This document shows positions 38,635 through 61,256 of a stretch of 64,000 nt of DNA, piece by piece; position 1 is the stretch's first letter, and every line of letters starts with the position of its first letter. The position numbers and the translations under genes are program-made. The stretch comes from a virus, in the IMG/VR virus record IMGVR_UViG_3300014059_000004; one strand, given 5' to 3'. Under the pieces are notes generated by a model. The model did not search any database, had not been told where the DNA came from, and was given only the letters and a program-made list of their open reading frames with translations.

Positions 38635-38785
38635 TTTCTCTAGAGAAATTTCCTCTGCCCGAGGTTACTTAAGAGGAGTGCTTCTTCTATCTAGAGAAAT
38701 ACAGTGGAAATATTTCCACTGCTCTATCTAGAGAAATACTAGAAATTACCTGCTGGCCCGACGAGCTCGCTAAATTTCTCTGGGA
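38635..38785. promoter_or_regulatory. Divergent regulatory region between the minus-strand glycan operon and the plus-strand block, built from palindromes and direct repeats
   Basis: 16-bp direct repeats tctatctagagaaata at 38686-38701 and 38723-38738 flank a perfect 20-bp palindrome. A third degenerate copy tttctctagagaaatt sits at 38635-38650 and is itself a 14-bp palindrome. An inverted partial copy atttctct lies at 38774-38781. Confidence 0.5.
38702..38721. repeat. Perfect 20-bp palindrome cagtggaaatatttccactg (candidate operator)
   Basis: Read directly; its reverse complement is identical. Confidence 0.9.
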
Positions 38786-39427: not shown

Positions 39428-40636
39428 TTGGTGAGAGAACTGCGGGAAGATGTAAAGCGAGAGATTGCTGATGCTCGTGCTGTGCTACGTGCTGTAATGT
39501 GTTTGCCAGATGCTTCGCTAGTTCGCAGCAAAGACAGCATCAGCATCTTGACAGAAGAGCAGGCAACTTTCAAGCTCATAGAAGCTTCAGGATTCAAGAA
39601 GAACTACGTTCTTCAGCTAGCACTTACTCATGCAGCCGCAGCCGAGGTGCTAGCCCCTGGGAGCTTCAACGAGACACTCTCGTTGATCACGATTAAACTA
39701 GAGAAATTCAGTAAAGGGAATCACAAGTTTAATTTTGAAGATTATTCTCGTGTCAATTCGAGACTAGCGACTGCTGACGATCTGCACCGTGTAGTGCATA
39801 GCATCGATGAGACGTACTTGCGAGACGTGCTGAACACAGCGCTGGAGCTCGCTGGTTACGGTGGTAAAATCTCAGTTGAGAAGTCTTCGTCAGCGTCTTC
39901 ATCTGTGGAAGTGACTCGAGGTTACAACTTCCAGATCGCTCCATGTTGGGATCTTACGATGATCGCAACAACACCTAAAGTCGCAATCATAGATGGGTAC
40001 GTTGAGAAAGTTTCTGAACTACATCACTTGCTTGAAGCTGCATCTGCCTCAAAAGAACCACTGGTCATCTTCGGTCGTGGTTATCATGATGACGTCATCA
40101 ACACGTTGAGAGTTAATTTCACTCGTGGAACGCTGATCGCTGTGCCAATATTGGTCAATTTTGATCTTGATGGTATCAACACGTTGAATGACATAGCAGT
40201 CGTCTGTGGTTCTGACGTTGTGTCTAGCAACAAGGGCGATCTGATATCTTCGATTGATTATGTTGGATTGAAGAGAGTGGATCGCGTGACAATCCGTCGT
40301 GATGTTGTAAGCATTGATAACGCTTCGACGAGACGTGAAGTCAACATCCATCGATCAAATTTGCTGAAGAAACGTGCTGAGAGCCCTGCATTTGACGTAA
40401 GCAAGCTCATAGACAAGCGCATCCGTTCCCTGAATGGGCGTCAGGTCATCGTTCGCCTGCCTGATGACAAGCATTACTTGTACCGGTCTAGGAAGATTGA
40501 TGTTGCTTTGAGAACTATGAAGATCATAGTTGATCATGGCATAATCGATGGTGAACCAGCGCTAGGTAAGGTAGCATCAGAGCATCACTCTGATCAGTTT
40601 GTCATGACGCTAGCTAACGTCGGTAACTTTATCTGA
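39428..40636 (+). CDS. Truncated, divergent GroEL/Cpn60-like chaperonin (apical and intermediate domains recognisable; no GDGTTT motif; ends near the GroEL ~430 equivalent)
   Basis: Alignment to GroEL: TRGYNF / [41 protein letters not shown] / [51 protein letters not shown] / [59 protein letters not shown] / [46 protein letters not shown]/GTG start. Confidence 0.6.
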   Translation: [402 protein letters not shown]

Positions 40637-41586
40637 CCGTCATCAGACAGTTGCTTGATGATTCTTGCTATGTCTCTGGGCTTGATGCCCTTCAGAGATG
40701 GAGCTTTGCTGTACTTTTGAACTAGATCCTTCAACTTCCCAGTTTCAACTGGGGCTGCTCCCGGAGCTTCGGCTCCGGACTTAGTCGTTGAACCGCTAGT
40801 TGCTGGTTCTGAAGACGTTGGTTGATCGCCACCTTGCGATGGAGCTGTTGTGTTTGTTGATTGTTGTGCAGCACCAGCTGCAGCATCGCTTACAGCATCC
40901 ACGTTTTGGAGTGCTTTGATCACGCTGTTCGTGATGACTTCGACGTCTTTGACAGACATCTTGATGATGCTGCTCGCCAAAGATTTCAAGCCTTGGCTGC
41001 CGTGCATGTACTTGTCGACCCAATTTTTACCGATCATTGCGATAGCACCGGTTGGTTTGAAACCTTTGATGATAACCTTCTGCAGATCATCAAGTTTTTT
41101 CTTTTCATCATTGCTCAACGAGTTAACGTCAGAAGCTTGTGAGTTTCCAGTGATGACTGCTAGCAGCGTAGCATTGTTATCGTTTCCAGTATTTAGAGCA
41201 TCGACGTACTTGTTGAACAAGTCGAAGAAATTTTTAAGAGCATCAGCAAATGCTAGCGCATCTACGAGTGGATTTTCTTTCTGCGTCTTAAACAAGTTGA
41301 TGATCGTACGAATTACGCCTGTATTCTTACCACCAGAAAGAACTTTGGTGACGTCAGCAACGGCAGCATCTCTAGCCTTAGAGAGTATGTCCATTGAGGC
41401 GAAGTTGATCGATTTCAAGCGCTTAACAACGTCGATCGCCGCTGTCATCTGCTGCTTGTCAAAAGCTTCGAGGATGAGCAAGTCAGCGCTGTCCCAACGT
41501 GATTCAATGAGAGCAGCTTTCTTCTTGACGATCAACTTCTGTTTCTCTGCGTAATTGTCTTTCAGCGTTCTTTGGATTTGGCTCAT
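40594..41586 (-). CDS. Hypothetical protein with Ala/Ser/Thr-rich linker, antisense inside the plus-strand block
   Basis: The track ORF starts at 41745. Its first ~53 aa look non-coding, so the likely start is MSQIQRTLKD at 41586. Confidence 0.4.
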   Translation of the reverse strand: MSQIQRTLKDNYAEKQKLIVKKKAALIESRWDSADLLILEAFDKQQMTAAIDVVKRLKSINFASMDILSKARDAAVADVTKVLSGGKNTGVIRTIINLFKTQKENPLVDALAFADALKNFFDLFNKYVDALNTGNDNNATLLAVITGNSQASDVNSLSNDEKKKLDDLQKVIIKGFKPTGAIAMIGKNWVDKYMHGSQGLKSLASSIIKMSVKDVEVITNSVIKALQNVDAVSDAAAGAAQQSTNTTAPSQGGDQPTSSEPATSGSTTKSGAEAPGAAPVETGKLKDLVQKYSKAPSLKGIKPRDIARIIKQLSDDGQIKLPTLASVMTN

Positions 41587-41959: not shown

Positions 41960-42427
41960 ATGCCAACAGGTACAAAACATCTTGTTAAGTGCAGGTGCAT
42001 TCTACCGCAGTTTAAGCACCTGCAGAATCCACCACAACACCAATTTACAGTGTTTTCTGTCATCGAAGATGATGACAGCGTTAAACCTAGCTTTGCGCAA
42101 TGCAATAACTGCGGAATAGTTCACAAGATTGTTGACATCGGTCGATCAGAGATAATCTCAGGAAAAGAATCAATGTCATCATTGATCACGATTGATGACT
42201 TGAAACACTCACTACCAGAGAACCTGGTGGCATTGCTAGAAAAGAATTCAGCAGATTTGCCAACCTGGCAATATGCTTCATTCATAATCGAGAATAAGAT
42301 GTGGGGGAACTTTGTTGTCGTGTCTTCTGAACTAGAATCTGATGTGATGATCATCAAGTACGTTCAGATTCTTGGTGAAAACCTTTTTAAGGTTCAGACT
42401 GCTTCTAGAGAAGAGTACATTAAGTGA
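41960..42427 (+). CDS. Cys4 zinc-binding hypothetical protein (155 aa)
   Basis: CRC...(35 aa)...CNNC. Confidence 0.45.
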   Translation: MPTGTKHLVKCRCILPQFKHLQNPPQHQFTVFSVIEDDDSVKPSFAQCNNCGIVHKIVDIGRSEIISGKESMSSLITIDDLKHSLPENLVALLEKNSADLPTWQYASFIIENKMWGNFVVVSSELESDVMIIKYVQILGENLFKVQTASREEYIK

Positions 42428-42433
42428 GGTCCT

Positions 42434-42721
42434 ATGCATTACGGTAAGTTGGCATCTGATGTGCTTGCAGAAGAGAACAAAGTAGCAAGAGACATCGTTA
42501 GAGAAATTGCTCAATTTGGTATCAACGAAAGGCAGAAGATTCTAGTCATGTACTTGCTGTCTCTTGAACTAGAGAACGTAAATGACATGAAGAAATTCTC
42601 TTCGTTCATCAAGAGTGAGAAGTCTGACATCTTTATTGCACCAGAAGAGGCTGAATTATGGGTCGACCTACTAACATTGCTAGCTCAAAGAATGATTCGT
42701 CCGATGATTCGCAGCAAGTGA
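42434..42721 (+). CDS. Small hypothetical protein (95 aa)
   Basis: ORF overlapping the ClpP-like start by 64 nt. Confidence 0.35.
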   Translation: MHYGKLASDVLAEENKVARDIVREIAQFGINERQKILVMYLLSLELENVNDMKKFSSFIKSEKSDIFIAPEEAELWVDLLTLLAQRMIRPMIRSK

Positions 42722-43320
42722 TCATACAGCAACCTTCAGATGGTGCTAGGATCGTGATTCTTCATGGCGACGTGAATGAGCACACTATTTCAACTGTCAT
42801 CTATCAACTGCTGCAATTGGCAAATCAGAATCATAAGCCAATTCATCTTGTGATATCAACGTACGGTGGTTCAGTTGATGAGATGTTTAGTCTGTACGAT
42901 ACTATCAAATTCTTGCCATGTCCAGTTCACACCGTAGCGCTCGGCAAGGTGATGAGCGCGGGAGTTCTTCTGCTAGCTGCTGGAACAAAGGGTAAGAGAA
43001 TGGTCGGGCGCTCGGCTAGGATCATGATACACTCTGTATCTGGCGGTGTATTTGGAAATGTTTTTGAGGCAATGAATGAGAACAAAGAGTTGCAGAGATT
43101 GCAACACTTGATGACAACTACGCTTCAAAAAGAAACCAAGATGTCAGCAAAAGACATCGAGAAGATGATGAAAGCTGGTCATGATTACTACATGACGCCA
43201 GAAGATGCAGTGAAGGCTGGTATTGTTGACAAGATAATCGGCGACAAGACATTACGTTGTACCACGCCTCAAAATGTCCTTAGTATTGTGTCAAAGACTG
43301 TGTCTTTGAGAACAAGATGA
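42658..43320 (+). CDS. ClpP-family serine protease
   Basis: Catalytic-triad context: GKVMSAGVLLLAAG (Ser), RIMIHSVSGG (His), HDYYMTPEDAVKAGIVDKII (Asp region). Confidence 0.7.
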   Translation: MGRPTNIASSKNDSSDDSQQVIIQQPSDGARIVILHGDVNEHTISTVIYQLLQLANQNHKPIHLVISTYGGSVDEMFSLYDTIKFLPCPVHTVALGKVMSAGVLLLAAGTKGKRMVGRSARIMIHSVSGGVFGNVFEAMNENKELQRLQHLMTTTLQKETKMSAKDIEKMMKAGHDYYMTPEDAVKAGIVDKIIGDKTLRCTTPQNVLSIVSKTVSLRTR

Positions 43321-47622: not shown

Positions 47623-48657
47623 ATGAGCGGCATCCTCGACTCAAAAACAAGAGTACTTGATACTATCATCACGCTTGAAGGTAGAAAGCAACTATCTCAA
47701 GGTGGGATCAATATCAAGTACGTCACATTCTCAGACGGTGCTACGTACTATTCGGCTGATCTTGTTAGCGGTTCTTCTGATGCAACTGCTAGAGTGTACC
47801 TAGAGTCTTGTCATCTACCGCAAGATCAAGTAACATTTAAGTCAGATGAAGATGGTAGACTTTTGCCATTTGACATCGGGCCTGGTTATTCGATCAGATC
47901 TGGGCAAGTCGTTAGCTATTCGTTCACGGCGGTTACGTCATCGTTGTTCACTGGATCTATCCAGCAGTACGACACTTTCAAAGGCGATGGATTCCACGCT
48001 CTTGTTGATGGCGTGCTTACTAGTTCAATAGACAACTTTCAGAAGCAGCGTGCAATTGCAACGAAAGACAACATCTTTGATGATGATGGATTTGCTTTGG
48101 GCAACAAAGACATAGAGTTTACTATCACGAATCAAAAGCCTTTGAAAGATCAAAACACGTTCTCAATGAACGTTTCTCACCTTGAAGAGATATTCGCAGA
48201 TCCTAGATTTAGTCATCTTCCAAACTTCAAGTATCTACCTCCAGTCAATAAGGTTACAGACGAAAAGGTTAACAAAAAGGATCATAGGCAGCTTAGCAAA
48301 TTTGCTTTGGGAGATTACAAACCTTGGGGTAGATCGCACGTGATACCGCTGAATCATGGTAACGTTCTAGCTGAACATCTTCATTACGCGAAGCAGGGCT
48401 TCTGCAAGACTGTCAATTTTGAACCAACGTCAAGAGAAAACAGGCTGTTCATGCAGATGTTTGAAGTGACTAATGACACCATGACAAAGATGGACGTAAT
48501 AGACTTTGGAACGTGGAACATCTCTCCAGTGGGAAAGTTTGGTTTGCAGAAGTCAATGACTAGCACGAATCACGTATTCTTCGTAGGTCGTCTGATCACT
48601 AAACCAGAGACTAATTCACATGCTTTTGTGCATCTATTTACGTTGATTTTTGGGTGA
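47623..48657 (+). CDS. Hypothetical protein (344 aa)
   Basis: ORF first in the run of large unknown genes. Confidence 0.5.
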   Translation: MSGILDSKTRVLDTIITLEGRKQLSQGGINIKYVTFSDGATYYSADLVSGSSDATARVYLESCHLPQDQVTFKSDEDGRLLPFDIGPGYSIRSGQVVSYSFTAVTSSLFTGSIQQYDTFKGDGFHALVDGVLTSSIDNFQKQRAIATKDNIFDDDGFALGNKDIEFTITNQKPLKDQNTFSMNVSHLEEIFADPRFSHLPNFKYLPPVNKVTDEKVNKKDHRQLSKFALGDYKPWGRSHVIPLNHGNVLAEHLHYAKQGFCKTVNFEPTSRENRLFMQMFEVTNDTMTKMDVIDFGTWNISPVGKFGLQKSMTSTNHVFFVGRLITKPETNSHAFVHLFTLIFG

Positions 48658-51115
48658 TCTGATGTATTACAAGCTTGAGAGAAAATACAATCTTCTGAGC
48701 GTCGAAGATAATTTTGCGCTATTGAAGAATATCCGTCGCGACGGAATGTATGAATTCGAATTTCGTTACAAGGTGCCGCAAGCAGATGTTATCAAGCAGA
48801 AAGCTACCACTGTCGAAGTTAGCGTTATAACGAAGACTATCAAGAAAAAGCCAATCGTTGGAGTTTCGACAATTGGAAAGATCAATGCCAAAGAAGTCAT
48901 TCAAAACGTTCTATCTGACATGGCGTCAGCAAAGTCAGCGTTGAAGCATCAAGAAAATTACGTAATTCACTCCAAGAACAGTGACATCACTGCACATATC
49001 AACAATGAAATTGTTAGCATGATGGCAGCTGGCAAGACTGCAGAAAACATACCTCAAACGTACACGCATAAACTTAAGACAGTTTCTGCAGGATCGTTGA
49101 AAGAATCAAACGACGTAAAGCCTGTTCTAGATTTTATGAACATGCAAGTCGACAACATCCACAACCAAGTTTCTTCATCGTACGATCAAGAAACAAAAAA
49201 GCTTAGTCACTCGATGATTTTGAAGCACGGCCTAGATCCTTCCGAAGTAGCTGATCTGGATGCTAAAGTCGGTGAGTCGTTCGATTCATTCCAGGGTACA
49301 TTTAAGCCTTCAAAGAGAAAGAGCAAGAAGAACAGTGCAATGGATAAGTTGCACGATCACGTCATGTTGAACAAGGGCGTGCAAGGAATTCAGTTGACCG
49401 CTAAAGACATGAGCGAAAATCAGCTCATAAACGTTGTTGTCAATGAATCTGTCCGCGACGTCGAAGTTCCTGTTACTGTGATGTTCATTCCACCCAAAAA
49501 GGCGCTCGGCACCAAAGATTCGATCGATGTTTTTGTTAAGTTCGTTCTTAAAGATTCCAGCACGGGCTCAGCGATAGATTCTGTTGTCGTTCCTCTTGAC
49601 ATACCAAAGCACACTCGTTTTTATTGGACACCAACTTCCGCACCAGTTGTGAAAGTCACGAAGGCCGAGATATCTTCTAAGGTCAATCTTGAGATCAAGC
49701 AAACGTCTATCAATGCAAATGAAGTTCATGTGTTCAAGAAGGTCATTCACACAACTAGCATTCAGAATGATGACTACGTTCTAGTCGGCGTTCATCCTGT
49801 AACAGGTAAGCAACGCATAATCGTTTCAGTTGACATGCCTCTTAAGAATGCTTACATATACCGTGTGATACCAGCATACTCTGGTATTTTGGGCTATTCA
49901 TACAACAATATCGTAGTTCAACCAAGGAGGTATACACCAGTCACTGCAATTTCGTTGACATCACACGTTGTTGATGAAGGCTTGCAACTAGAAGCTAGAC
50001 ACATACCGCCAGAGACTGTGTCTATTCAATTTTTGCAGCGAGACCTGACTATCTTTGAGAAAGATTTCACGTCAATCAGTGAACCAATATTGGTTGAAGA
50101 CAGCATAAGAAGAGCTGATCACGTTTCTTACATCGCAGCAAACGTGCAAGCAAATCATGTGTATGAGTTTGCGTGTAGGATCTATCAATCAACTGGTGTT
50201 CAGACCATCACAGGGAATGAGATTATTGAACATAATTTGCCAGAACCAGGAAAGATCGATGTTACCGTTAGAGACATCATCGTTAGTCATGATGATGAGC
50301 CCAATGTTTCGTTCACTGTTGATGTTAACATTCTTGATAGCAATGTTGATCAGATCAAATCATTGCTTGAAAAGCAAGGAATTAAAGCATACTTCGAAGG
50401 AGATATTGCAAAGCAACGAGACCAGTTGAAGTCTTTGCTAGCATACTCAATTCATAGAATCGATCTTAATACTGGCATTAGAGAAGATCTTGGCGTTATA
50501 ACACAACCATCATTTAATGATAAGAACGTACGTCGTATCTATTCAGCCTCTTCATTGAAGTATGGACACAAGTATCGATATCAAATCACACCGCTAGCCC
50601 GGTCGGCAGAAACGTTGTTCGATGCGTTCAAAAAGACGTCGCTAGATCCAGTAACGAAGAAAGCTTACACGTTCGAACCGTCAAAATTTCTACACCCTGT
50701 CACGAAAAAGACTGGCATGGTCGTGACTGCTGCTGGGCTAGCTACGAAATTTTCGAAGAACGCATTTGAGCACGGAGCAATTGGTGCAACGCACAACGTT
50801 GAAATAACGTTGGATCAATCGCCTTCAGTTGTTGCCGACCCAGTTGCTGAAAAAGTTAACCGCTTCTATAACTCAATTTCTTGGAAGTTGCAAGGTGAGC
50901 TATCCAACGTTGATCACTTCATAATCATGAAAGAATTTCATGGTCTAAGAATTCTTCTTGGAACAGCACATTCATCATTTCAACACGGCCATTGCCAATG
51001 GTTGCACAAGTTGGGCTCTAGCGATAGAGGCGAAATTAAGTATGTGATAGTTCCTGTGCTGAATGATTACAAGCATGGTACGCAAGTAGTATCAAATTCG
51101 TTGGTGATAGAATAA
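48650..51115 (+). CDS. Large hypothetical protein (821 aa), candidate virion component
   Basis: Long ORF, no motif recognised. Confidence 0.55.
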   Translation: MGDLMYYKLERKYNLLSVEDNFALLKNIRRDGMYEFEFRYKVPQADVIKQKATTVEVSVITKTIKKKPIVGVSTIGKINAKEVIQNVLSDMASAKSALKHQENYVIHSKNSDITAHINNEIVSMMAAGKTAENIPQTYTHKLKTVSAGSLKESNDVKPVLDFMNMQVDNIHNQVSSSYDQETKKLSHSMILKHGLDPSEVADLDAKVGESFDSFQGTFKPSKRKSKKNSAMDKLHDHVMLNKGVQGIQLTAKDMSENQLINVVVNESVRDVEVPVTVMFIPPKKALGTKDSIDVFVKFVLKDSSTGSAIDSVVVPLDIPKHTRFYWTPTSAPVVKVTKAEISSKVNLEIKQTSINANEVHVFKKVIHTTSIQNDDYVLVGVHPVTGKQRIIVSVDMPLKNAYIYRVIPAYSGILGYSYNNIVVQPRRYTPVTAISLTSHVVDEGLQLEARHIPPETVSIQFLQRDLTIFEKDFTSISEPILVEDSIRRADHVSYIAANVQANHVYEFACRIYQSTGVQTITGNEIIEHNLPEPGKIDVTVRDIIVSHDDEPNVSFTVDVNILDSNVDQIKSLLEKQGIKAYFEGDIAKQRDQLKSLLAYSIHRIDLNTGIREDLGVITQPSFNDKNVRRIYSASSLKYGHKYRYQITPLARSAETLFDAFKKTSLDPVTKKAYTFEPSKFLHPVTKKTGMVVTAAGLATKFSKNAFEHGAIGATHNVEITLDQSPSVVADPVAEKVNRFYNSISWKLQGELSNVDHFIIMKEFHGLRILLGTAHSSFQHGHCQWLHKLGSSDRGEIKYVIVPVLNDYKHGTQVVSNSLVIE

Positions 51116-51116
51116 C

Positions 51117-54100
51117 ATGATCAAAACATTCAAAGCGGGCAATGAAAAAGCTGCAAACACCGGCTTGATCGAAGTTCAGCCAACTGTAGTTGATGACATT
51201 CCTGGAAAGAGTGGAAAGACCGCGAAAGGAAAGTCTAAGATTCCTCACGATACTCCGATCGGTGTGCCAACTGGAGCACAGAACGTTCAGGACAAGGGCT
51301 TGGTTGACATGGTGGGAAGCCCAAGTTTGGGAGGAATGTCAAACAAGCTCGGCAAGCCAGGTTACCTCGTTGATACTGGATCTGGTAAGGGAAAAAACGC
51401 GATCATCCCCATCTTCAACTTTCCAGATCCAGGTGTTAGTCTTCCAAGTTCATCAGACGAACTGTCAGTTTCAACTAAAAAATTCGATGCATATGAGCAT
51501 TTGACTGGAATCTCTAAAGAGAGACCAGAGATCATCATGCTTACGAACTTTCAACCGCTATTCAACGAGCAATCGTTTTCAGATCACCCGGGCGCAAAGC
51601 TAGCAGTAAATTCTGTTCAACACTTGCAAACTGACGCCGGAGCGTTCTTTGATCATCAAGCATCAGTTCGAAAGTTGAAGCAGCACAATGCCAACCAGTT
51701 GATGTCTTCGCTTAAGCAAAACTCTCACATCATCAAGCAAGAATTTTCGCTTAGAAAAGAAAATTTTAGCAATCGAATTGGCGAGCTGACTGCCACATCT
51801 CATTATCTGTGGGGCTTGATAAAGACGCTTGAGAAGCTAAAGCATCAACTTGATCTTCGAGATGATGTTCATGAAGTTGATCCACAAGAATCGCTTAGAA
51901 ATCATGTTGGAAATTTCGGACCAGTCAGATCTGATGGTTTGCTTCGCGGTCTGACCACGTCAGTTAACTCGAACTTTCCTCCAAAGTTCAACGTTGTTGA
52001 TGTCATGGGTCTCTTTGGTTACACCAAGGTTAACACAAGAACAGTTTACACGTCATCTAAGTTGTGGCTACAGATGATGTTTGAATTCAAGAATTTGCTT
52101 CGTACTCATTCTTTGAACTTGTTGGACATTGAACCTACGTACCAAAAAAGAGATGACAGCCCAGCAAAGATAACTCAAACGCCGGGTGTGAAGCGTTTTG
52201 ATTTTGCTGCGTTTCTGCCGAATATTCCTGCGATGTCTGACATCAAAGACATTCAACCAAATGACATTCCAGGCATGCTAAGCCTGATAACAGATGCTTA
52301 CAACGTGATCTACGAGAACGTTCAATTTAAGAACGACGAAACTCGCATCGCAGCTCTTTTGAACGCTGTTTCTAGAGAGTTTAGGTACTCACGTGGAATA
52401 AGCAATCCAGACGTTCAGAATACGCTAGAGTCGTACTATGGTTACAACATCACGAACAACAATAACTTGAAGTTGATGGACGTTGTCATAGGACAATTTG
52501 GAAACAACATCACAGACATACCAGCAGTTAAGTCAAGCGCTTTGACAAGCATCGCTCAGTTTCAACCAGCAGAAAATGTAGCTGTCATGACGCTCGAATC
52601 AAAGTATATCGAGGGTGATAATGGCATCATAACGCCGGGATCGAGTTACTTCATTGATTACGTGCTTGAAGTTGACGGAGACAAGTTTGCAACAAACAGG
52701 ATGATTCAGCTGCAAGAATACTTTGACAAAGCATACAAGCAATTCAACGTGTTTGTCAATGGCATGAATCTGCTAGCTGCAGAGTACACTGATGATCAAG
52801 ATGCTAACGCTGGAACGTTCGAAATTTCTTTGAATAATCCAAGGTCTTTGTTCAACGAACTTCGAAAGAATATCGTCACCGATAGCGGATTTGAACATGT
52901 TGATGTCAAGAAAGACATACTAGTTCCAGTTTTTGCCGCAGCAAAAAACAACCAGAAGATCAAGTCTTTGATGGTCATGTATTTCATTGCAAAGATGTCA
53001 AAGAGCTATGGTTCGAACGTTGTAAAGTTTTTCAAGTCATCGAAGCAGCAAGATAATACTGCTGCAACTGATGCCATCATTGATCAGATCATTGCAGAAT
53101 TGTTGAAGGAGGCAACTGCAATATCAAACGTCGATTCACTCAACAAATTTAAGAATGGTCAGACTGGTGAGAAGCATGGTAAAGTGCTTGTTAACGTTGC
53201 TGCAATTAAGAATGCATTCAAGACCAACACTAGGTTGTTGACTGTGATCGAGGGACATTTTAACCAAATTGCAGCTGCGTTCAGATCAGGCAATCTTGCG
53301 TTGAATGGAAACGTAACTCGCTATGGCGGCCACCCTGACACTGTCATCATGATGGCTTTGATGGATGTCATTGCAACGATGATGGACTTGTACGGTAACA
53401 GAAAGATAAGCGGAAAAGTTATCGATAAGACAGGAACATCTTTTTCGATTAATGAAAAGACGCAGAATCATGCCGCTTCTATCAATGAAGTTGATCATCG
53501 GTTGAGCAAAGAGATAGTGCTTACTCAGCACGTAATATTCACTGTTCTTAACACGTTGAAGAGGCTTAGCAATTCAATCGGTAACGTTGTGAACTATTTG
53601 AACAGTCCACAATCGTTGAAAGAGTTGAAGAAGATAGTTGAGCTAATAGACGATCCAAAGTTGCTTCATATGTTGTTTAGCGAGCAGCAGATCAGATTGT
53701 TTGCATCATCTGTCGCTGATTTGTCGCATGCATTGCGCGAAGCTTCAACTGCATCATCTGTTCTCGATGACGTTAATGGAGACGGCAAGTTTGATGCTGA
53801 TGATGAGATACGTGCTCTAGATGATTCTTCCGTGAGCACACGAGTCAAAGAAGCTATCGATGCTCTGTTTTCATTGAGCGAATATTCAAGTGCCATGGCC
53901 AACAACAAGAAGATTCTTACCGTTGGCATACCTCTTGGATTTGGACAACATTTGCAAAGAAAGGTTGATGTCAGAAGGCTAAAGAAAAGCTCGTTTGATG
54001 ACAAGCAAAATGACATCATCAAGATCAACGTCTACAAAGTAGATCTGCAGAATCCTGACATCGTTTACCTACCAAGAAGTTACTTCTTTGAACTGTCTAG

Positions 54101-55172
54101 ATTCCCAGTGAGAAGTGAATCATTGGTGAAGAACATCGTTGCGAAAGACAAGATGAACATCATCAATAGATTTCCAACGAGAGATTATAGCGGAATATTC
54201 GCTGAAGGTGGAAGCTTGGTGCAATACTACAACGCAGCGCCAGACGAATCAGAAGCTCTATCTTCTGATGAGTACTCATTCCTTCCTCAAAATTCAAAGA
54301 TGCAGCTCTACATGAACCACGTGATGAGTTACCTCCTCGAGGTATACATTCGAGTCATGACTGGCATCTCTACGTCTGATTATCACTTTGATCTGATTGA
54401 CCCGCCACCAAACACTGAAGAAGATTTTGTGAACCTCGTTCTCAACTATCATCTTGGTGAAGTGACATCAAAGCGTGGTCCAAGAGAGACACATGATGAG
54501 AACGTTCATCAAGGTGGATCATTGTTCACTTCAACGCACAAAGGGTCAAACAGTCGTGGCGGCCGCGGAATGAACCACTCAGATGGCACTGAAGCCACCC
54601 AGGGTGCCCACGGTAATTCTTCAGGAACTCCAGGCATGTCTATTATGTCTGCAATGTCCAATTTTACTGGTGACACTGTCGATGATATCTCGCCATTGGC
54701 ACGTCAGAAGCCACGCACCACAGATGATCTTCTGAGTTCTGTTTCAACCAAAGATGTTCCATTGCTTCAGCATACGTTTGGTGTTATCAATGAATTTGCT
54801 AGAACACCCACGCCGCTCTCTGATCCACTTAGCGTCTCGAAGAGGTTGATCAATCCAAAGCAGTTCGATCGCATCTTTAATCTGCTAGTTGATCCAAATG
54901 ATTTTGAGATTGACGTCAATGCTACGATGGCGACGCCTCATGGCAAGCAAGCATTTGAGCTTCTTGTTCGCCATGGTGAGATTTTGCCGCAGATGACGCA
55001 ATCGTCGCTTTTCATGGGATCGAACAAAACGAGCAATGCATATTCAGCTCGAAAGAAATCTCCTGCTGCTGGTGATCTTTCGTTTGAAAAGTTTTTGGTA
55101 TCGATCGAAACCATCGGAGAAGACACTGTGTTATGTCGACATCACTACCTTCAAAAGAGATCTTTGCTGTAG
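51117..55172 (+). CDS. Very large hypothetical protein (1351 aa) with a Gly/Ser-rich low-complexity segment
   Basis: Long ORF. GGSLFTSTHKGSNSRGGRGMNHSDGTEATQGAHGNSSGTPG. Confidence 0.55.
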   Translation: MIKTFKAGNEKAANTGLIEVQPTVVDDIPGKSGKTAKGKSKIPHDTPIGVPTGAQNVQDKGLVDMVGSPSLGGMSNKLGKPGYLVDTGSGKGKNAIIPIFNFPDPGVSLPSSSDELSVSTKKFDAYEHLTGISKERPEIIMLTNFQPLFNEQSFSDHPGAKLAVNSVQHLQTDAGAFFDHQASVRKLKQHNANQLMSSLKQNSHIIKQEFSLRKENFSNRIGELTATSHYLWGLIKTLEKLKHQLDLRDDVHEVDPQESLRNHVGNFGPVRSDGLLRGLTTSVNSNFPPKFNVVDVMGLFGYTKVNTRTVYTSSKLWLQMMFEFKNLLRTHSLNLLDIEPTYQKRDDSPAKITQTPGVKRFDFAAFLPNIPAMSDIKDIQPNDIPGMLSLITDAYNVIYENVQFKNDETRIAALLNAVSREFRYSRGISNPDVQNTLESYYGYNITNNNNLKLMDVVIGQFGNNITDIPAVKSSALTSIAQFQPAENVAVMTLESKYIEGDNGIITPGSSYFIDYVLEVDGDKFATNRMIQLQEYFDKAYKQFNVFVNGMNLLAAEYTDDQDANAGTFEISLNNPRSLFNELRKNIVTDSGFEHVDVKKDILVPVFAAAKNNQKIKSLMVMYFIAKMSKSYGSNVVKFFKSSKQQDNTAATDAIIDQIIAELLKEATAISNVDSLNKFKNGQTGEKHGKVLVNVAAIKNAFKTNTRLLTVIEGHFNQIAAAFRSGNLALNGNVTRYGGHPDTVIMMALMDVIATMMDLYGNRKISGKVIDKTGTSFSINEKTQNHAASINEVDHRLSKEIVLTQHVIFTVLNTLKRLSNSIGNVVNYLNSPQSLKELKKIVELIDDPKLLHMLFSEQQIRLFASSVADLSHALREASTASSVLDDVNGDGKFDADDEIRALDDSSVSTRVKEAIDALFSLSEYSSAMANNKKILTVGIPLGFGQHLQRKVDVRRLKKSSFDDKQNDIIKINVYKVDLQNPDIVYLPRSYFFELSRFPVRSESLVKNIVAKDKMNIINRFPTRDYSGIFAEGGSLVQYYNAAPDESEALSSDEYSFLPQNSKMQLYMNHVMSYLLEVYIRVMTGISTSDYHFDLIDPPPNTEEDFVNLVLNYHLGEVTSKRGPRETHDENVHQGGSLFTSTHKGSNSRGGRGMNHSDGTEATQGAHGNSSGTPGMSIMSAMSNFTGDTVDDISPLARQKPRTTDDLLSSVSTKDVPLLQHTFGVINEFARTPTPLSDPLSVSKRLINPKQFDRIFNLLVDPNDFEIDVNATMATPHGKQAFELLVRHGEILPQMTQSSLFMGSNKTSNAYSARKKSPAAGDLSFEKFLVSIETIGEDTVLCRHHYLQKRSLL

Positions 55173-57034
55173 ATGTACCAGAAGTAAAGAACTTTCAGCT
55201 GCAATTTAAGTACAATTTTTTCGTTCCTGATGAAAAGGTTCGAGAAGTTAGTGGTATACCAGCAAATTTGCTGAGAAAATCAACTGGAGAGATTGAAGCT
55301 GATCAGATCAAGCATCTTGAGGCACGTGTTCCAAGACATGTGATCTTCAACTGGAACAAGGTTCACATCAACGAACCGGGTAATAGGACGCTTGACATAG
55401 ACACACGAGCCCGCGCTTTCAGAAGCAGCGGTTTGAAAAATTACATTTCGCAGAACTACAGCAAGATAGTCACCGAAGATCACTTCTCGTCGCATAACTT
55501 CATAGGTGTCACATTCCATGATGGTGAGATCGACCAGAAGGCGTACAATCTGGTGTCTGGAAGCTACTTGCAGCTTACATTGTCAGAAGAAACTGATACG
55601 AACGTTAGTCCTACTATGGCGGCTTCGAAGCTAAATTCGATCACGCCTCAAACGATCAAGCCTCACTTTTTCTACAGATCAATGACAGAACCCAAGTTGG
55701 CGTACGGAGGTCAACAATTCGTTGTCAACAAATCTGGAAATAGATCGCAAGCAGATGGTCCTCGTGTTGCTCACAACAACTACATGAATCGTTTGAAGTC
55801 TGCATATCTTAATGCTCAGATCAACTCCAGATTCTTGCAAGGCATCACTGGTAGAAACATAAAAGATCCTTCATCGCCATTTAGCGTTGATCTTCATTCG
55901 TTGAACAAGCTTGGCAAAAAGTTGTCGACATCAATGAAGCACAAGATTGGACACACAATCAGCGAGACTGAGTTTAAGACGATTGTGCCGTTTATAAATC
56001 TCAAAGTTGACAAGACAGCGCATCATCAGCAGCGAAAACCAGCAGAGATAGTTGGTTACGTGATTGACAAGTGGGAAGTTTCTGCGAACGGTTCGGTGAA
56101 GCAGCTTGAACCCATCATCATTGACAATGTTGATGCTCAGGTTGCAATAGATTCAAGGGTGAAGTACGATCAGCAGTATTGCTACAGCATCCGATCAGTG
56201 GCACTGTTTCACATACCTGCTATTGATCATGATACGTCAGAAGTTGCAACGATCCAAGTTCTCATAAGCTCTAGATCGTCTAACAAGTTGTATGTCACAG
56301 TTCATGATGACGTCGCGCCGCCTCCACCAGCAGACTTGAAATTCAACTGGAATTACGAGGATGATAAGTTGCTAGTTCACTGGGCGTTTCCACCAAACTC
56401 TCAACGAGACATCAAGAAGTTCCAGGTTTTCAGAAGATCTTCGATCGAAGAACCTTACGAACTGCTGAAAGAATACAATTTTGATGATTCTGTCGTTAAA
56501 GCTCAACAAAGAGAGATCGTCGCACCACATCTCATTGAAAATTTGTCATCACCAGCAACGTACTATGTTGATGATGATTTTACGAAGGATTCTAAATACA
56601 TGTACGCCGTGTGCTCTATCGATGCTCATGGTCTGACATCTTGCTACAGCGCCCAATTTGAACTTAGCTTTGATAGGTTCAAGAACGCTCTTCAGAAGAA
56701 GCTAGTGAGTCATAGTGGAGCACCAAAGTCTTATCCAAACATGTACCTCGAAGGTGAAGGGTTTGTTGACGTTGCAAGAGTTGAGGGTGCATACACTAAG
56801 AAGCTAAGCGTTTACTTTGTACCGCAATATTATCAGTTGACTGACGAACATGGTCGAGTTCATAAGATGCTATCGACAAAGCAAGCTGGTGGTTCGTACA
56901 AGATCAATTTCTTGAACGTGGACAACCAAAAGAGCGAGACGATGACGATACTCATCGATGACAAGATAGTCAAGGCTGAATCCAAACTCACATTTGCCTC
57001 TTCTAAGTTTAACGTTCAAAGCAAGTTCAAGTGA
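55133..57034 (+). CDS. Large hypothetical protein (633 aa)
   Basis: ORF overlapping the previous gene by 40 nt. Confidence 0.55.
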   Translation: MSTSLPSKEIFAVDVPEVKNFQLQFKYNFFVPDEKVREVSGIPANLLRKSTGEIEADQIKHLEARVPRHVIFNWNKVHINEPGNRTLDIDTRARAFRSSGLKNYISQNYSKIVTEDHFSSHNFIGVTFHDGEIDQKAYNLVSGSYLQLTLSEETDTNVSPTMAASKLNSITPQTIKPHFFYRSMTEPKLAYGGQQFVVNKSGNRSQADGPRVAHNNYMNRLKSAYLNAQINSRFLQGITGRNIKDPSSPFSVDLHSLNKLGKKLSTSMKHKIGHTISETEFKTIVPFINLKVDKTAHHQQRKPAEIVGYVIDKWEVSANGSVKQLEPIIIDNVDAQVAIDSRVKYDQQYCYSIRSVALFHIPAIDHDTSEVATIQVLISSRSSNKLYVTVHDDVAPPPPADLKFNWNYEDDKLLVHWAFPPNSQRDIKKFQVFRRSSIEEPYELLKEYNFDDSVVKAQQREIVAPHLIENLSSPATYYVDDDFTKDSKYMYAVCSIDAHGLTSCYSAQFELSFDRFKNALQKKLVSHSGAPKSYPNMYLEGEGFVDVARVEGAYTKKLSVYFVPQYYQLTDEHGRVHKMLSTKQAGGSYKINFLNVDNQKSETMTILIDDKIVKAESKLTFASSKFNVQSKFK

Positions 57035-57037
57035 TCA

Positions 57038-57895
57038 TTGTGTTTACTGATGCATGTACAAGAGGTAGGATTAAATGTGAACGTGTATCTTGTTAAGAAT
57101 AAGTTTAATGGCAAAGGATATGTTGGCATTACTACTGTTAACATTGACTGGAGAATTGCTGGACATCTTAAGGATGTTGAAAAAGGTTCAACTTTGCCAT
57201 TTCATCTTGCACTTAGAAAGTATGGTATTGAATCATTTGATATATCGTCATTGCAAGATTGTGAGTCGACAGACGAGCTTAAACTTGCGGAAGTTTATTG
57301 GATTGACAAGTTGTCAACGTTCATTGATAATCATGGTTACAATGCAACTCGAGGTGGAGATGGCATATTTGGACATAAACATACTCTAGAAACTAGAAAA
57401 AAGCAAAGTATGTCAGCTAGAAATAAGATCGTTTCTAGCATTGCTCGAAGCAATATGTCAATTGCACAAAAGAAGAGATTTACTTCTGAAGAAAATCTGA
57501 AAAAACATCGTGATATCTTGTCAAAGATAGATCGATCTTACGTTAACACCAACGCATACAAAGCAAAGATATCCGCAGCGAATACTGGGAAAAAACGGTC
57601 TAAGATAACTTGTGAAAACATTAGCAAAGCATTGCTTGCTAGAAAATACAAGATGTCAGAAGACAAGAAGTTGAAGATAAGCACAAAACTAATTGGAAAT
57701 CAATGTGCAAAAAGATGTCCAATATTGCAATATGATCTTGATGGTAAATTTATTGCGTATCACGCTACGACATATGCAGCAGCTTCATCGATTGGGAAAA
57801 AATCTCCATCTGCAATTATTGCTTGTTGCAAAGGTAGGATATCTTTTGCACAAGGATATATTTGGAAGTATGCTACTGTTGATGAAGTAGTCTGA
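57038..57895 (+). mobile_element. Free-standing GIY-YIG homing endonuclease with NUMOD3 repeats
   Basis: VYLVKNKFNGKGYVGITT..RIAGH..YNATRGG. HKHTLETRKKQS repeats. Confidence 0.65.
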
Positions 57896-57926
57896 CTCAG
57901 TTGGTACTTATATTGAAAGAAAACAC

Positions 57927-59978
57927 ATGGGCTTCCTCGATCATTCAAGCAACAATATAATTCTGGACGCTGTGCTAACAGATTTGGGCAGACAGTTCCT
58001 AGCACGGAATGATGGGTCATTTTCAGTCCATAAGTTTGCGCTTGGAGATGATGAAGTTAACTACGGCATCATCTCGAAGTACGGCCGCACGGTCGGAAAA
58101 GAGAAGATCGAGAAGAACACACCAGTCTTTGAAGCACTGACAAACCAGGGGCACTCTCAAAAGTACCGCTTGATAAGCATCTCTAACCCCAACTTGCTGA
58201 GACTGCCATCGCTTAGCCTATCAGGTGACGCAAACGTCGACGGTACGACAGGTATCGTTACGCTGGGTAGAAATCAGCAGAAGACGTCGGCAATCACCAT
58301 CGAGCAGACGATCAAGAACGAGACGTCTATCGATGTTGAGCTAAGAGATCAAACGTTCATTGTTGAAGTTCCGAACTTGTTCTGCCAGATCCTGCGCAAC
58401 ACACCAGAAAATGTCGATGGACAGCAGAGAGCAACGTACATCATCACTCGCTCACCAACCGAGAACGCTTTCGGAGGATCGTCAGTACAGTTCACATTGT
58501 CAGTGAAGTCATTGACAGACGCCCTGTTCACGGTATACGGAACTACAGCAAATAAGGCGAAGATCAAGACGTACATAAAAGTCACAGGCGTTCAGTCGGG
58601 CGCAGTGAAAGATATCACAGTCATCATCGACAAGAACCTGTTAGAGACGAACGAGAAATTAAGAAACATGTCAACATTTAAGGAAATTCTTCCGTCAGAC
58701 GTAAAGACAGCTAGGTCGTTCTTGAACCAGCTTGTTGATGTTTTGCAAGAAGACGTCTCAGGTTCTACATCTAGAAGAAAGTACCAAGTGTTCGTCACCG
58801 GTGGAGTCGGCCCTGGTGTGACTAGTTCTTTGTTTCAAACGGTGTACGATCAAGATTTCACTCTGCAGACTGCAAATCCAGTCTTTGATATGACTGTTGG
58901 ATTGAAGCCTGCTGGCACCACAGTGACAACTAGCCAGACCGGAACAGATGCTGCGTCTAAGGAACTGTTTCCTAGCTCATCATTGATGATGCGCGAGAAG
59001 ATGGACATTTACAGGCAGTTTGCTGCATCGATGTTGGGTGATTCTACGCAAACATTCAAAGCAGCGTACGATTCTACAACTGCATCTGATGAGATTGACG
59101 TTGCTCTGTTTATTGCATTCAAGAGATTGTTTGCAAGAGACCAGATCAAGCGTGAGACTTTTGCGATGAGATTCTACCAATCTGCATCGTTTGTCTCAAA
59201 GTCTGGAACTTCAGTCGACTGCCCACCTACAGCTATCTCAGCTAACGCTGGCGTCACAAACTTGAACGTGACAACGTTGTCAGGTTCTTCAATCTACACA
59301 GACATTGGAACTTCAACGAACAAGCTCACGGCTTTCGGTGGTCAAGTTGGTAACGTCGTCGACGCTGCTAACACTTCACGAACTGTCGGTTTGATGTTCT
59401 ACGATCGTGGTGTTCTTGTTCTCGATCTTGCAAAGGTCACTTCTGGAAGTCAGTACATGTCTGGAACGATCGATGCTATGAGCTCGCTCGGAACTACGTT
59501 GCTGGGCGGTGTCAACACTGAAACTGCGTTGAAGTCTAAGTTCATCCCGGACTTTGTCGTGTCTGCTTCTATTGACAACATCGTTGATCACATCGCTGCA
59601 TGTAGGTTCGGTTCCGGATCGCAATCTGCTATCACGTTCCAGAACATCACAAACATCAATTCTACGTTGATCTTCTGCAGAGCCGCTGCTGACGAGTTTA
59701 ACTACTCTTCCAACCCAACGTTCATCGATTCTGACAACAGGATCGTTGTGATTGATGCCGGACAAGAAGATACTCAAACAGCTTTCACGTTCGTAAGCTC
59801 TGTTGGTCTGTACGATTCTAACGACAACTTGCTAGCAGTTGCAAAGCTATCTAGACCGGTAGAGAAGAATCCTGAGAAGGATCTCACGCTGCGTGTTAGG
59901 TTGGATTATTTATGTAATAATTGCGGCATTTTGTGTACCATGTCATCATGGCTACAAATTATGCCGATAGAATGCTAG
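57927..59978 (+). CDS. Large hypothetical protein (683 aa), candidate structural
   Basis: Long ORF with RBS-like gaaagaaaacac upstream. Confidence 0.55.
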   Translation: MGFLDHSSNNIILDAVLTDLGRQFLARNDGSFSVHKFALGDDEVNYGIISKYGRTVGKEKIEKNTPVFEALTNQGHSQKYRLISISNPNLLRLPSLSLSGDANVDGTTGIVTLGRNQQKTSAITIEQTIKNETSIDVELRDQTFIVEVPNLFCQILRNTPENVDGQQRATYIITRSPTENAFGGSSVQFTLSVKSLTDALFTVYGTTANKAKIKTYIKVTGVQSGAVKDITVIIDKNLLETNEKLRNMSTFKEILPSDVKTARSFLNQLVDVLQEDVSGSTSRRKYQVFVTGGVGPGVTSSLFQTVYDQDFTLQTANPVFDMTVGLKPAGTTVTTSQTGTDAASKELFPSSSLMMREKMDIYRQFAASMLGDSTQTFKAAYDSTTASDEIDVALFIAFKRLFARDQIKRETFAMRFYQSASFVSKSGTSVDCPPTAISANAGVTNLNVTTLSGSSIYTDIGTSTNKLTAFGGQVGNVVDAANTSRTVGLMFYDRGVLVLDLAKVTSGSQYMSGTIDAMSSLGTTLLGGVNTETALKSKFIPDFVVSASIDNIVDHIAACRFGSGSQSAITFQNITNINSTLIFCRAAADEFNYSSNPTFIDSDNRIVVIDAGQEDTQTAFTFVSSVGLYDSNDNLLAVAKLSRPVEKNPEKDLTLRVRLDYLCNNCGILCTMSSWLQIMPIEC

Positions 59979-60358
59979 TACCTCTGCATGGTGATGCTAC
60001 TATGAAACTGTGCTCAGTTTCGAAAGAGCTTCTATGCACTGGCTACAAGAGGATCGTCATAGGTCAACGTGGTCCGTACGTTGAAATTGAATTTGATCAG
60101 TTGAATTCTGAAGCTTTTCATGAAGTGCCAGAGCAACATTACTATTACGTTGAACTTAGATCACGTGCTGACAACGTAAAAGCTTACCTGCAGCTCAAGG
60201 AGGTTGATTACGCTGACTACAAGGTTGGTCTAGCGTACATATCGCCGTTTGATCTTGTGCTAGAAGATAACAGTCGACTCATCATACCTATCAGAGCTAT
60301 TTCTTCCAACCGGCTTCCCACCTTACTGCGTTGCACACCAGTTCACCAAATCCGATGA
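59948..60358 (+). CDS. Hypothetical protein (~136 aa)
   Basis: The track ORF starts at a TTG at 59921; the first ATG is at 59948. Confidence 0.35.
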   Translation: MATNYADRMLVPLHGDATMKLCSVSKELLCTGYKRIVIGQRGPYVEIEFDQLNSEAFHEVPEQHYYYVELRSRADNVKAYLQLKEVDYADYKVGLAYISPFDLVLEDNSRLIIPIRAISSNRLPTLLRCTPVHQIR

Positions 60359-61202
60359 TCTCGTGCTCGTAAGAGTACCTTCTGAACATTGGGATCTTTG
60401 CGTAAAGCGGTTCAATGTCTAGCAGCTTGCCTTTATTTTCACCCGGGTCTAGCTCTAGAATCACGCAAAACTTTGATTGCTCAAGCGATCCACCGTATCG
60501 CGTCGCTATTCTTTCATCGTACGTCCATGAACTTGAGTACTTGTACGCCGGCTGGTACTTGAATACTCCTTCTATTCGACCATAGTTTCCACCGTCGTAT
60601 TTATGAAGATTATTCTCGAGCCATTCTCGATTAACTCGTATACCTCTATACAGCTGTCGACCAACCTTGGGCTGCTTCAAGATGCCAGGGTACTGCTTGG
60701 CTCTCAATGCATCTTCTATGATTGCAGCAGAATCAGCGCTTACTTCCCCATTCATCATGATGTGCTGTTCTAGAGCCGCATAGACTTTGTCCTCTGCATC
60801 TGTGTTTGGTTCTTTTGGAAGCTTCTCAGCTCTTGCGCTTGGAAATAGGAAAGATCCAAACGGCGCACTTTCATCTTTCTCGTCGGGCTTTACACCAAGC
60901 TCTTTCATCTCTTCTCGCCAGAGAGCAGCGCGCTGAAATTCTTTTGCTCTCTCGTCAGAGAGCCCTTTACGTCTCTCTTCATTTTTTTGCAAGCTGACTT
61001 GAAGCTTTGGCAGGTATGCGTTTAGTCGATTTTCAAGTTTCAGAAGATTTGTATCATCTGCTTTGCTGATGTATGCATCGATAGCATAGAACAGCTCATC
61101 ATCTAGGTTACCTTTTTCGTAATCGTTAAAAGCGCAGTTGTACAGTTCTTCAACACCGAACATAGTCGCAAGGTTGTAAAGCTTTCGTGTTGATGCATGC
61201 AT
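60297..61202 (-). CDS. Antisense hypothetical protein with a candidate R-S-ExE mono-ADP-ribosyltransferase motif set
   Basis: QLYRGIRV (R194), YKYSSSWTY (231-233), YSYEHEIIG (287-289) in the order and spacing seen in Alt/ModA/C3-type ARTs. ATG at 61202. Confidence 0.35.
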   Translation of the reverse strand: MHASTRKLYNLATMFGVEELYNCAFNDYEKGNLDDELFYAIDAYISKADDTNLLKLENRLNAYLPKLQVSLQKNEERRKGLSDERAKEFQRAALWREEMKELGVKPDEKDESAPFGSFLFPSARAEKLPKEPNTDAEDKVYAALEQHIMMNGEVSADSAAIIEDALRAKQYPGILKQPKVGRQLYRGIRVNREWLENNLHKYDGGNYGRIEGVFKYQPAYKYSSSWTYDERIATRYGGSLEQSKFCVILELDPGENKGKLLDIEPLYAKIPMFRRYSYEHEIIGFGELVCNAVRWEAGWKK

Positions 61203-61256
61203 GCTGTAAGTATGTAATGGGTTCAACCGTTGAATTGTTGTATAGTTACGGTTGAC

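Follow-up and report, generated by a model that had tools for sequence, protein, structure and literature searches.

A truncated GroEL-like protein without the canonical ATP site is a core gene product of an uncultured jumbo-phage lineage

What remains of a chaperonin when both its ATP-binding residues and the ring-forming half of its equatorial domain are gone? By the usual view a chaperonin is a ring machine with an obligate ATP drive, and the question is raised by a gene in the IMG/VR virus record IMGVR_UViG_3300014059_000004. The gene lies on the plus strand of a 64,000-nucleotide (64-kb) stretch of that genome, referred to here as the window, and encodes a GroEL-like protein of about 400 amino acids (aa). 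An original prediction, made from the letters of the window alone, had interpreted the product as a truncated and probably ATPase-dead chaperonin, serving as a substrate-binding 'mini-chaperone' or as a subunit that co-assembles with host GroEL. In our analysis the truncation and the dead ATP site held, whereas neither of the two proposed functions found support. We describe the gene product as a 'pseudo-chaperonin' descended from the group I chaperonins, and on balance we consider it probable that this module derived from GroEL serves in the binding or assembly of a specific partner independently of ATP, and that it is often made together with a small protein encoded upstream.

The open reading frame (ORF) at 39428..40636 (+) was confirmed and its translation has 402 aa; residue numbers below are counted from the TTG codon at 39428. 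A Pfam scan of this protein returned no family match, PF00118 (Cpn60_TCP1) included, even at E ≤ 10, and no precomputed Pfam domain is recorded for any of 117 homologues. The original prediction had named the lack of a Cpn60 profile match as grounds for abandoning it, and formally this is what was found. The Pfam negative is outweighed, however, because PHROG, PDB-profile and structural evidence all point to GroEL. PHROG 5725 ('chaperonin groEL') matched residues 143-373 with an E value of 3.8e-15, covering positions 172-422 of the 540 in the profile. A single-sequence phmmer search of the PDB found about 60 GroEL/Hsp60 sequences with E values from 3.5e-17 to 1e-9, aligning residues 127-385 of the query with GroEL 154-424. 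With a profile built from 53 family sequences, the match to PDB GroELs reached E 2e-26 and was colinear between profile positions 16-385 and GroEL 19-413, thereby taking in the N-terminal equatorial helices and the stem-loop. In addition, hhalign against E. coli GroEL gave a probability of 98.4%. The protein is a genuine, highly divergent group I chaperonin homologue, and the resemblance to GroEL that had been read along the sequence by eye is borne out.

AlphaFold and Foldseek had been proposed as a check on the prediction, and both came out in its favour. AlphaFold2, run with the family alignment, produced a model with a mean pLDDT of 90.7 and a pTM of 0.79, in which the secondary structure elements run in the GroEL order, from helices A-G through the apical domain and back via the intermediate domain. 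The top Foldseek matches in the PDB were solely GroEL/Hsp60 chains (E 1e-23), with a TM-score of about 0.5, a value to be expected of a three-domain protein with hinges. Model, Foldseek matches and profile alignment together reveal the three-domain chaperonin fold (equatorial, intermediate and apical, with the chain running out and back), of which the equatorial domain is only about half there. The GroEL-equivalent structural residues F195, D224, E232, T261, N265, D291, G306, R368 and G410 are common to both proteins.

In GroEL, the equatorial domain comprises residues 6-133 and 409-523, the intermediate domain 134-190 and 377-408, and the apical domain 191-376. The viral protein is colinear with GroEL from about residue 19 to 425 and then ends (Table 1). 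Its N-terminal equatorial remnant is composed of helices 8-24, 43-52, 56-75 and 79-95 and strands 29-33 and 38-42, which AlphaFold2 builds as a compact, confident stand-alone domain (pLDDT 80-94). The apical domain carries family motifs that include IDGxxExVSEIHHLLE and FxRGxSDDVxHTLx. The chain stops about 17-30 residues beyond G371, the equivalent of G410, near GroEL 425-440, in line with the predicted end at about 430. The region corresponding to GroEL ~440-548 has no counterpart, and the protein is about 140 aa shorter than GroEL. In GroEL, the C-terminal equatorial segment carries most of the intra-ring and all of the inter-ring contacts, and its 519-522 strand pairs with the neighbouring subunit. 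The viral protein has lost this strand together with the inter-ring residues E434, R452, E461, S463 and V464, and the loss of the C-terminal equatorial segment precludes assembly of the canonical double ring. An alternative assignment of the last helix to the final helix of GroEL (~497-516), which would require an internal deletion, was dropped on the basis of sequence alignments and reading by eye: the stretch PALGKVAS after G371 is colinear with GVALIRVAS of GroEL 416-424.

Table 1 Coordinates of the GroEL-like gene, the domains of its product and the neighbouring features within the window.
Feature	Position	Strand	Basis and remarks
GroEL-like coding sequence	39431..40636	+	401 aa from GTG; alternative TTG 39428 gives 402 aa
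N-terminal equatorial remnant, residues 1-106 (GroEL ~6-133)	39428..39745	+	Profile alignment to GroEL 19-133; helices A-E, stem-loop hairpin
Degenerate phosphate-loop counterpart, residues 72-82 (GroEL 82-91, NDAAGDGTTT)	39641..39673	+	Profile alignment
First intermediate segment, residues 107-163 (GroEL ~134-190)	39746..39916	+	PDB and profile alignments, hhalign
Apical domain, residues 164-339 (GroEL ~191-376)	39917..40444	+	PDB and profile alignments; full domain
Second intermediate segment, residues 340-369 (GroEL ~377-408)	40445..40534	+	PDB and profile alignments
Short hairpin and terminal helix (378-398), residues 370-402	40535..40633	+	Sole remnant of the C-terminal equatorial segment (GroEL 409-523)
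Three exact TCTAGAGAAAT copies	38639..38737 (starts 38639, 38690, 38727)	+	Within 100 bp; divergent intergenic region
Upstream coiled-coil protein, 196 aa	38833..39423	+	ORF list; conserved LNGGF...HxAIYxPxxG, C-terminal Gly/Ala-rich hydrophobic segment
Convergent coiled-coil low-complexity protein, helix-turn-helix-like C-terminal end	40594..41586	-	ORF list
Zn155, 155-aa CxC...CxxC protein	41960..42427	+	Downstream, same strand, 86/86 loci
p95, ~85-95-aa helical protein, motif YLLSLELEN	42434..42721	+	Downstream, same strand, 86/86 loci
ClpP-family serine peptidase	42658..43320	+	PHROG 94 and 1827; PF00574 in L001-L003

The ATP cycle of GroEL needs D87, D52, D398, the phosphate loop and the second half of the nucleotide pocket. 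E. coli GroEL was aligned to the family hidden Markov model (HMM), and the nucleotide site and the apical groove were compared in 53 members. The predicted lack of a GDGTTT motif was verified in the query, where the phosphate-loop stretch reads A-P-G-S-F-N-E, and extends to the whole family. The family pattern at GroEL 86-91 is P, G, G/S/A, F, D and a variable residue (P in 47 of 53 members, G in 50, F in 42 and D in 30), with D87 and T89-91 lost. D52 is replaced by R or K. D398 corresponds to V359 in the query (nucleotides 40502-40504), in a family column occupied by Y (24), L (9), V (5), N (4) and R (4). Moreover, the columns of GGG 414-416 are gapped or variable, and N479, A480, I493 and D495 of the pocket region 479-495 are without counterpart. 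The principal alignable ATP-contacting residues are thus all replaced save the glycine beside D87, and the nucleotide pocket of group I chaperonins was found neither in the query nor across the 53 members.

Could the protein still be an energy-driven chaperonin, either using nucleotide at a non-canonical site or having its equatorial domain completed by a partner subunit in trans? The substitute for GDGTTT, the loop AE..GPG.F, is the best conserved part of the equatorial remnant and contains the invariant E73, and the visible sequence is only part of the genome. Against this stand the replaced ATP contacts and the missing pocket half (414-416 and 479-495), and the confident prediction of the remnant as a compact domain by itself. 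Furthermore, no ORF in the 64-kb window resembles a detached GroEL 409-548 piece in phmmer searches at single-sequence sensitivity. We regard an energy-driven chaperonin as very unlikely.

The hydrophobic groove for substrate and GroES, formed by apical helices H and I, is remodelled as well, judging from the aligned residues. Y199 is replaced by P, residues 201-204 are deleted, L234 is changed to H in 44 of 53 members and V263 to R or K in 48 of 53, so that of the groove residues Y199, Y203, F204, L234, L237, L259, V263 and V264 only L237 and V264 are kept. These changes leave the 'mini-chaperone' idea unsupported and, it appears, somewhat disfavoured. Engineered apical-domain minichaperones (~191-345/376) and monomeric Thermus cpn60 fragments are ATP-independent, lack a complete equatorial domain, can be stable and can bind proteins. 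These fragments, however, are laboratory constructs that keep the native hydrophobic groove, whereas the viral family is natural, has a changed groove and, besides the apical domain, retains the intermediate and half of the equatorial domain.

The same residues bear on a role as modulator of the host chaperonin system, in which the protein would be a decoy, a poison or an accessory subunit that binds host GroEL/GroES and diverts folding to phage proteins. Its GroEL ancestry and retained apical domain fit such a role, and phages are known to reprogramme GroEL via GroES-like proteins such as T4 gp31. HSP10 occurs in jumbo phage groups 2 and 3 (PMC7824862). Among the ORFs of the 64-kb window, phmmer at single-sequence sensitivity found no GroES, T4 gp31 or second GroEL, and neither a GroES nor a gp31-like gene is annotated in the flanks of the related loci L001-L008. 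On the other hand, the elements for intra-ring and inter-ring equatorial contacts are absent, the contacts for the GroES mobile loop are altered (L234 to H, V263 to R/K, loss of the Y199/Y203/F204 region), and the equatorial remnant shows the lowest conservation within the protein, which would be unexpected if it had to contact a highly conserved host protein. Host modulation is therefore unlikely in our view, and the predicted co-assembly with host GroEL, which lacks support, seems somewhat disfavoured by the absence of 519-522, R452/E461/S463/V464 and E434.

The protein had been treated as a one-off, yet it belongs to a large conserved family in which the truncation is a family trait and not an artefact. 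A protein set clustered at 90% identity contains 117 homologues, almost all of 360-430 aa, on contigs of up to 370 kb. An HMM scan of 1.84 billion cluster representatives (clusters at 50% identity) returned at least 750 clusters at E ≤ 1e-30. The best 150 of these measure 275-462 aa and include no full-length version, the outcome of a check that had been suggested with the prediction. The family alignment has 15 invariant columns at 27-45% pairwise identity. Its motifs are AE..GPG.F, IDG..E.VSEIHHLLE, RIRSL..N and a C-terminal consensus LxxLGAxI, and the query satisfies them. In addition, the query fits the family definition by length (~360-460 aa), by its location on a phage contig and by its position upstream of the Zn155-p95 gene pair.

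Conservation within the family is uneven. The apical domain is the best-conserved part (mean top-residue frequency 0.61; 0.61-0.64 over the apical domain and second intermediate segment), whereas the equatorial remnant reaches only 0.38. Purifying selection, as read from these frequencies, is focused on the apical and second intermediate segments, and the protein is evidently not a relic. Gene decay to a fragment, a frameshift in a GroEL gene or an artefact of assembly might have been suspected from the blindness of Pfam to the protein and from the ~140 aa by which it falls short of GroEL. We give this explanation practically no weight, in view of the hundreds of diverged homologues (27-45% identity) that share length, ends and invariant residues, the DNA directly downstream, which is a convergent gene and not GroEL sequence, and the high confidence of the AlphaFold2 model.

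The family is apparently restricted to viruses, in uncultured jumbo phages. In IMG/VR, 122 relatives were counted on viral contigs that reach 369 kb. No relative was found with a single peptide pattern in GTDB (one genome for each of 185,579 bacterial and archaeal species), and no family member among 50,697 GenBank phage records. Megablast of the locus against GenBank phages gave no match, and tblastn of the query and the divergent members P0112 and P0117 gave weak matches to full-length phage GroELs or nothing. The structural matches in BFVD were solely full-length viral GroELs of 511-609 aa, in agreement with the earlier statement that known phage GroELs are full length. The gene is a core gene and a marker of an uncultured jumbo-phage lineage without a GenBank representative.

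A comparison with known systems places the family apart from each of them. Group I GroEL/Cpn60 (E. coli GroEL, 1AON; Thermus, 4V4O) is homologous, colinear over ~19-425 and alike in equatorial-intermediate-apical topology. The viral family is ~140 aa shorter, lacks 440-548 with its inter-ring contacts, 519-522 strand and GGM tail, has its ATP-site residues replaced and the helix H/I groove remodelled, and falls below a reportable PF00118 match. Because the Pfam profile, the ATP site, the complete equatorial domain and the hydrophobic groove all failed, we do not file the protein as a functional chaperonin. The chaperonins of Pseudomonas phage EL (gp146), Bacillus phage AR9 and the virioplankton are also virus-encoded GroEL homologues, often of jumbo phages, and provide the best BFVD matches, yet they are full length, unlike the new family of ~400 aa. 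Described phage chaperonins are full-length ATP-dependent ring chaperonins (PMC7185714, PMC9598537, PMC5649160). The virioplankton survey demanded coverage of GroEL residues 8-514 (PMC5649160), so the new family would be excluded from it, and an overview of jumbo phages names only ATP-dependent HSP60 and HSP10 (PMC7824862). We found no description of a truncated viral GroEL in the literature.

Among divergent cellular paralogues, the chlamydial GroEL2 and GroEL3 have reportedly departed from the canonical tetradecamer/ATPase regime and acquired specialised roles. The lower oligomers of M. tuberculosis GroEL1/GroEL2 have likewise left that regime for specialised roles (PMC5904260). Unlike the viral family, both sets are cellular and full length, and their equatorial domain is complete. 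The CCT-like domain of PIKfyve/Fab1 and the proteins BBS6/10/12 reuse apical and intermediate parts of chaperonins as non-ATPase binding modules. The concept is the same, but these proteins are eukaryotic, derived from group II chaperonins and unrelated in origin to the viral family. The closest functional analogies are the engineered apical-domain minichaperones and the divergent cellular paralogues.

The start of the gene ties it to its upstream neighbour. The non-ATG start directly after the upstream stop had been predicted correctly and can be refined. The upstream ORF ends with TAG at 39421-23, followed by a second TAG, a T, TTG 39428 and GTG 39431, the last of which begins 7 nucleotides past the upstream stop. 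The true start is most likely GTG 39431, giving 401 aa, because L009, an IMG/VR relative with 97% identity, reads TCG at the TTG position and retains the GTG, and because the identical protein P0001 is called at 401 aa by JGI. No Shine-Dalgarno sequence was seen by eye in the bases read before the start, which suggests translational coupling with the upstream gene. Across 86 loci carrying the GroEL-like gene, homologues of the upstream protein are encoded directly upstream on the same strand in 60, with a median gap of -18 nucleotides, and the upstream gene is likely an operon and translational-coupling partner of the GroEL-like gene. The upstream protein has no Pfam, PHROG or PDB match. Its C-terminal segment is probably a membrane anchor, with a Kyte-Doolittle maximum of 1.34 in a 19-residue window. 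A count of upstream membrane proteins by Kyte-Doolittle score was too crude, as its threshold missed the Gly/Ala-rich segment of the window's own protein, and the homology count of 60/86 was used instead.

This coupling also lends some weight to a different role, that of a GroEL-derived structural or scaffolding protein that does not act in folding, either within a membrane-associated infection complex with the upstream tail-anchored protein or as a nucleoid or replication factor. Besides the probable membrane protein in 60/86 loci, the GroEL-like gene shares its block with genes for a DinG-type helicase, an Hc1 histone-like protein, PhoH and a sigma-70 region 4 protein. Isoelectric points (pI) of 9.0 and 9.8 mark the apical and second intermediate segments as basic, and the DNA-associated GroEL1 of Mycobacterium tuberculosis offers a precedent (PMC5904260). 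The protein as a whole is nevertheless near neutral (family median pI 6.8), no nucleic-acid-binding motif was found in it, and the neighbourhood may be plain synteny. A structural or nucleoid role is possible, though well short of probable.

The GroEL-like gene keeps a constant place in a conserved gene block. Further downstream, PhoH is encoded in 81/86 loci, a DinG-like helicase in 77/86 and a ClpP-like peptidase in 70/86; the p95 ORF overlaps the beginning of the ClpP-like gene. In 9/86 loci a PrkA/SpoVR module, with DUF444 in L007, is found upstream of the GroEL-like gene and never together with ClpP, and 7/86 loci have neither. A divergent ClpP-less sublineage with the stress-module genes PrkA and SpoVR directly upstream includes L005, L007, L008, L069, L076, L083, L085 and L087. 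Its members usually carry a PF04308 RNaseH-like gene directly downstream. The frequent ClpP neighbour invites the idea that intermediate domain, apical domain and stem-loop still hold the protein together as a seven-fold ring, and that this ring, deprived of the GroEL ring-ring interface, stacks on another seven-fold machine, the phage ClpP-family peptidase encoded 2 kb downstream; in the ClpP-less sublineages the stacked ring might work with the PrkA AAA+ module. Such stacking is a speculative idea to which we attach only a slight chance. If true, it would represent an ATP-independent, symmetry-matched, chaperonin-capped protease chamber, a new proteolytic or processing machine made from a chaperonin relic.

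Other features of the locus were noted. The 3' end of the convergent gene overlaps the GroEL-like stop by 43 nucleotides (40594-40636), and no terminator-like hairpin lies between the two genes in this region. A convergent overlap of 4-15 nucleotides is likewise present in L001-L003, and homologues of the convergent gene occur in ~30-60 of the 86 loci. Its start is probably the ATG at 41586, as suggested by the ORF translation and the N-termini of homologues. Upstream, the region of TCTAGAGAAAT repeats separates a minus-strand glycosyltransferase cluster from the plus-strand unit formed by the upstream gene and the GroEL-like gene. An inverted repeat, CAGTGGAAATATTTCCACTG, with a 9-bp stem lies at 38701-38722 between two of the TCTAGAGAAAT copies, and no further exact copy of TCTAGAGAAAT exists elsewhere in the 64 kb. 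The repeats may represent a phage-specific promoter or operator. The minus strand from ~12,000 to 38,554 is occupied by a long gene run with several glycosyltransferases, a SAM methyltransferase-like gene and a HAD-hydrolase fusion, and this large glycan-modification cluster is conserved beside the GroEL-like gene in 70/86 loci, as counted by its 673-aa glycosyltransferase-like protein. At 48650-63764 (+), none of five large ORFs (821, 1351, 633, 683 and 844 aa) matches Pfam or PHROG significantly; the sole hit among them, to DUF3479 on the 844-aa ORF, is below threshold. The bulk of the genome is unannotated.

The window looks like part of a jumbo myovirus genome. It contains a baseplate wedge homologue, the glycosyltransferase/methyltransferase cluster, PhoH, the DinG-type helicase and the ClpP-like peptidase. 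The nearest cultured relatives by helicase, Tunturi_5, Xoo-sp13, XacN1 and phage G, are ~30% identical (best 31%), and the matching locus of Tunturi_5 has no GroEL-like, Zn155 or p95 gene.

We therefore return to the reading that we favour, an ATP-independent binding or assembly module. The protein has retained the apical domain, both intermediate segments and the N-terminal equatorial half. Gone are the nucleotide pocket and the C-terminal equatorial segment, from which GroEL builds its ring-ring interface, a large part of its within-ring interface and the floor of its cavity. With pocket and segment lost, it would run no ATP-driven GroEL/GroES folding cycle. The apical face, strongly conserved though remodelled, with conserved His and Lys/Arg on helices H and I, would recognise one specific phage protein or a defined host protein, which would be held, escorted or assembled during infection. 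The changes in the groove residues make a specific partner likelier than a general holdase activity. In most members the protein possibly acts together with the upstream-encoded, probably membrane-anchored small protein. Isolated GroEL apical domains are able to suppress aggregation without the full ATP cycle. The same holds for lower-oligomer mycobacterial GroELs (PMC5904260).

Several observations weigh against this reading. The upstream coiled-coil protein is missing from 26/86 loci. The constant neighbours Zn155 and p95 may reflect mere lineage synteny, the whole block being lineage-specific. The loss of canonical motifs is no strict proof that nucleotide is not bound. A ring of some kind is conceivable, given that stem-loop hairpin (29-42), intermediate domain and apical domain are all intact. 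Finally, the window covers 64 kb of a genome of at least 313 kb, which leaves room for a GroES-like or complementing gene outside it.

The viral GroELs described so far, from EL, OBP, AR9 and the virioplankton, fit the picture of an ATP-driven ring, and the new family departs from it. Surveys of viral chaperonins that need a full-length GroEL or a Pfam match miss the family entirely. The family has been kept under purifying selection after the loss of the ATP site and of the ring-forming equatorial half, and it thereby constitutes a natural test of what the apical and intermediate module of GroEL is able to do without its engine.

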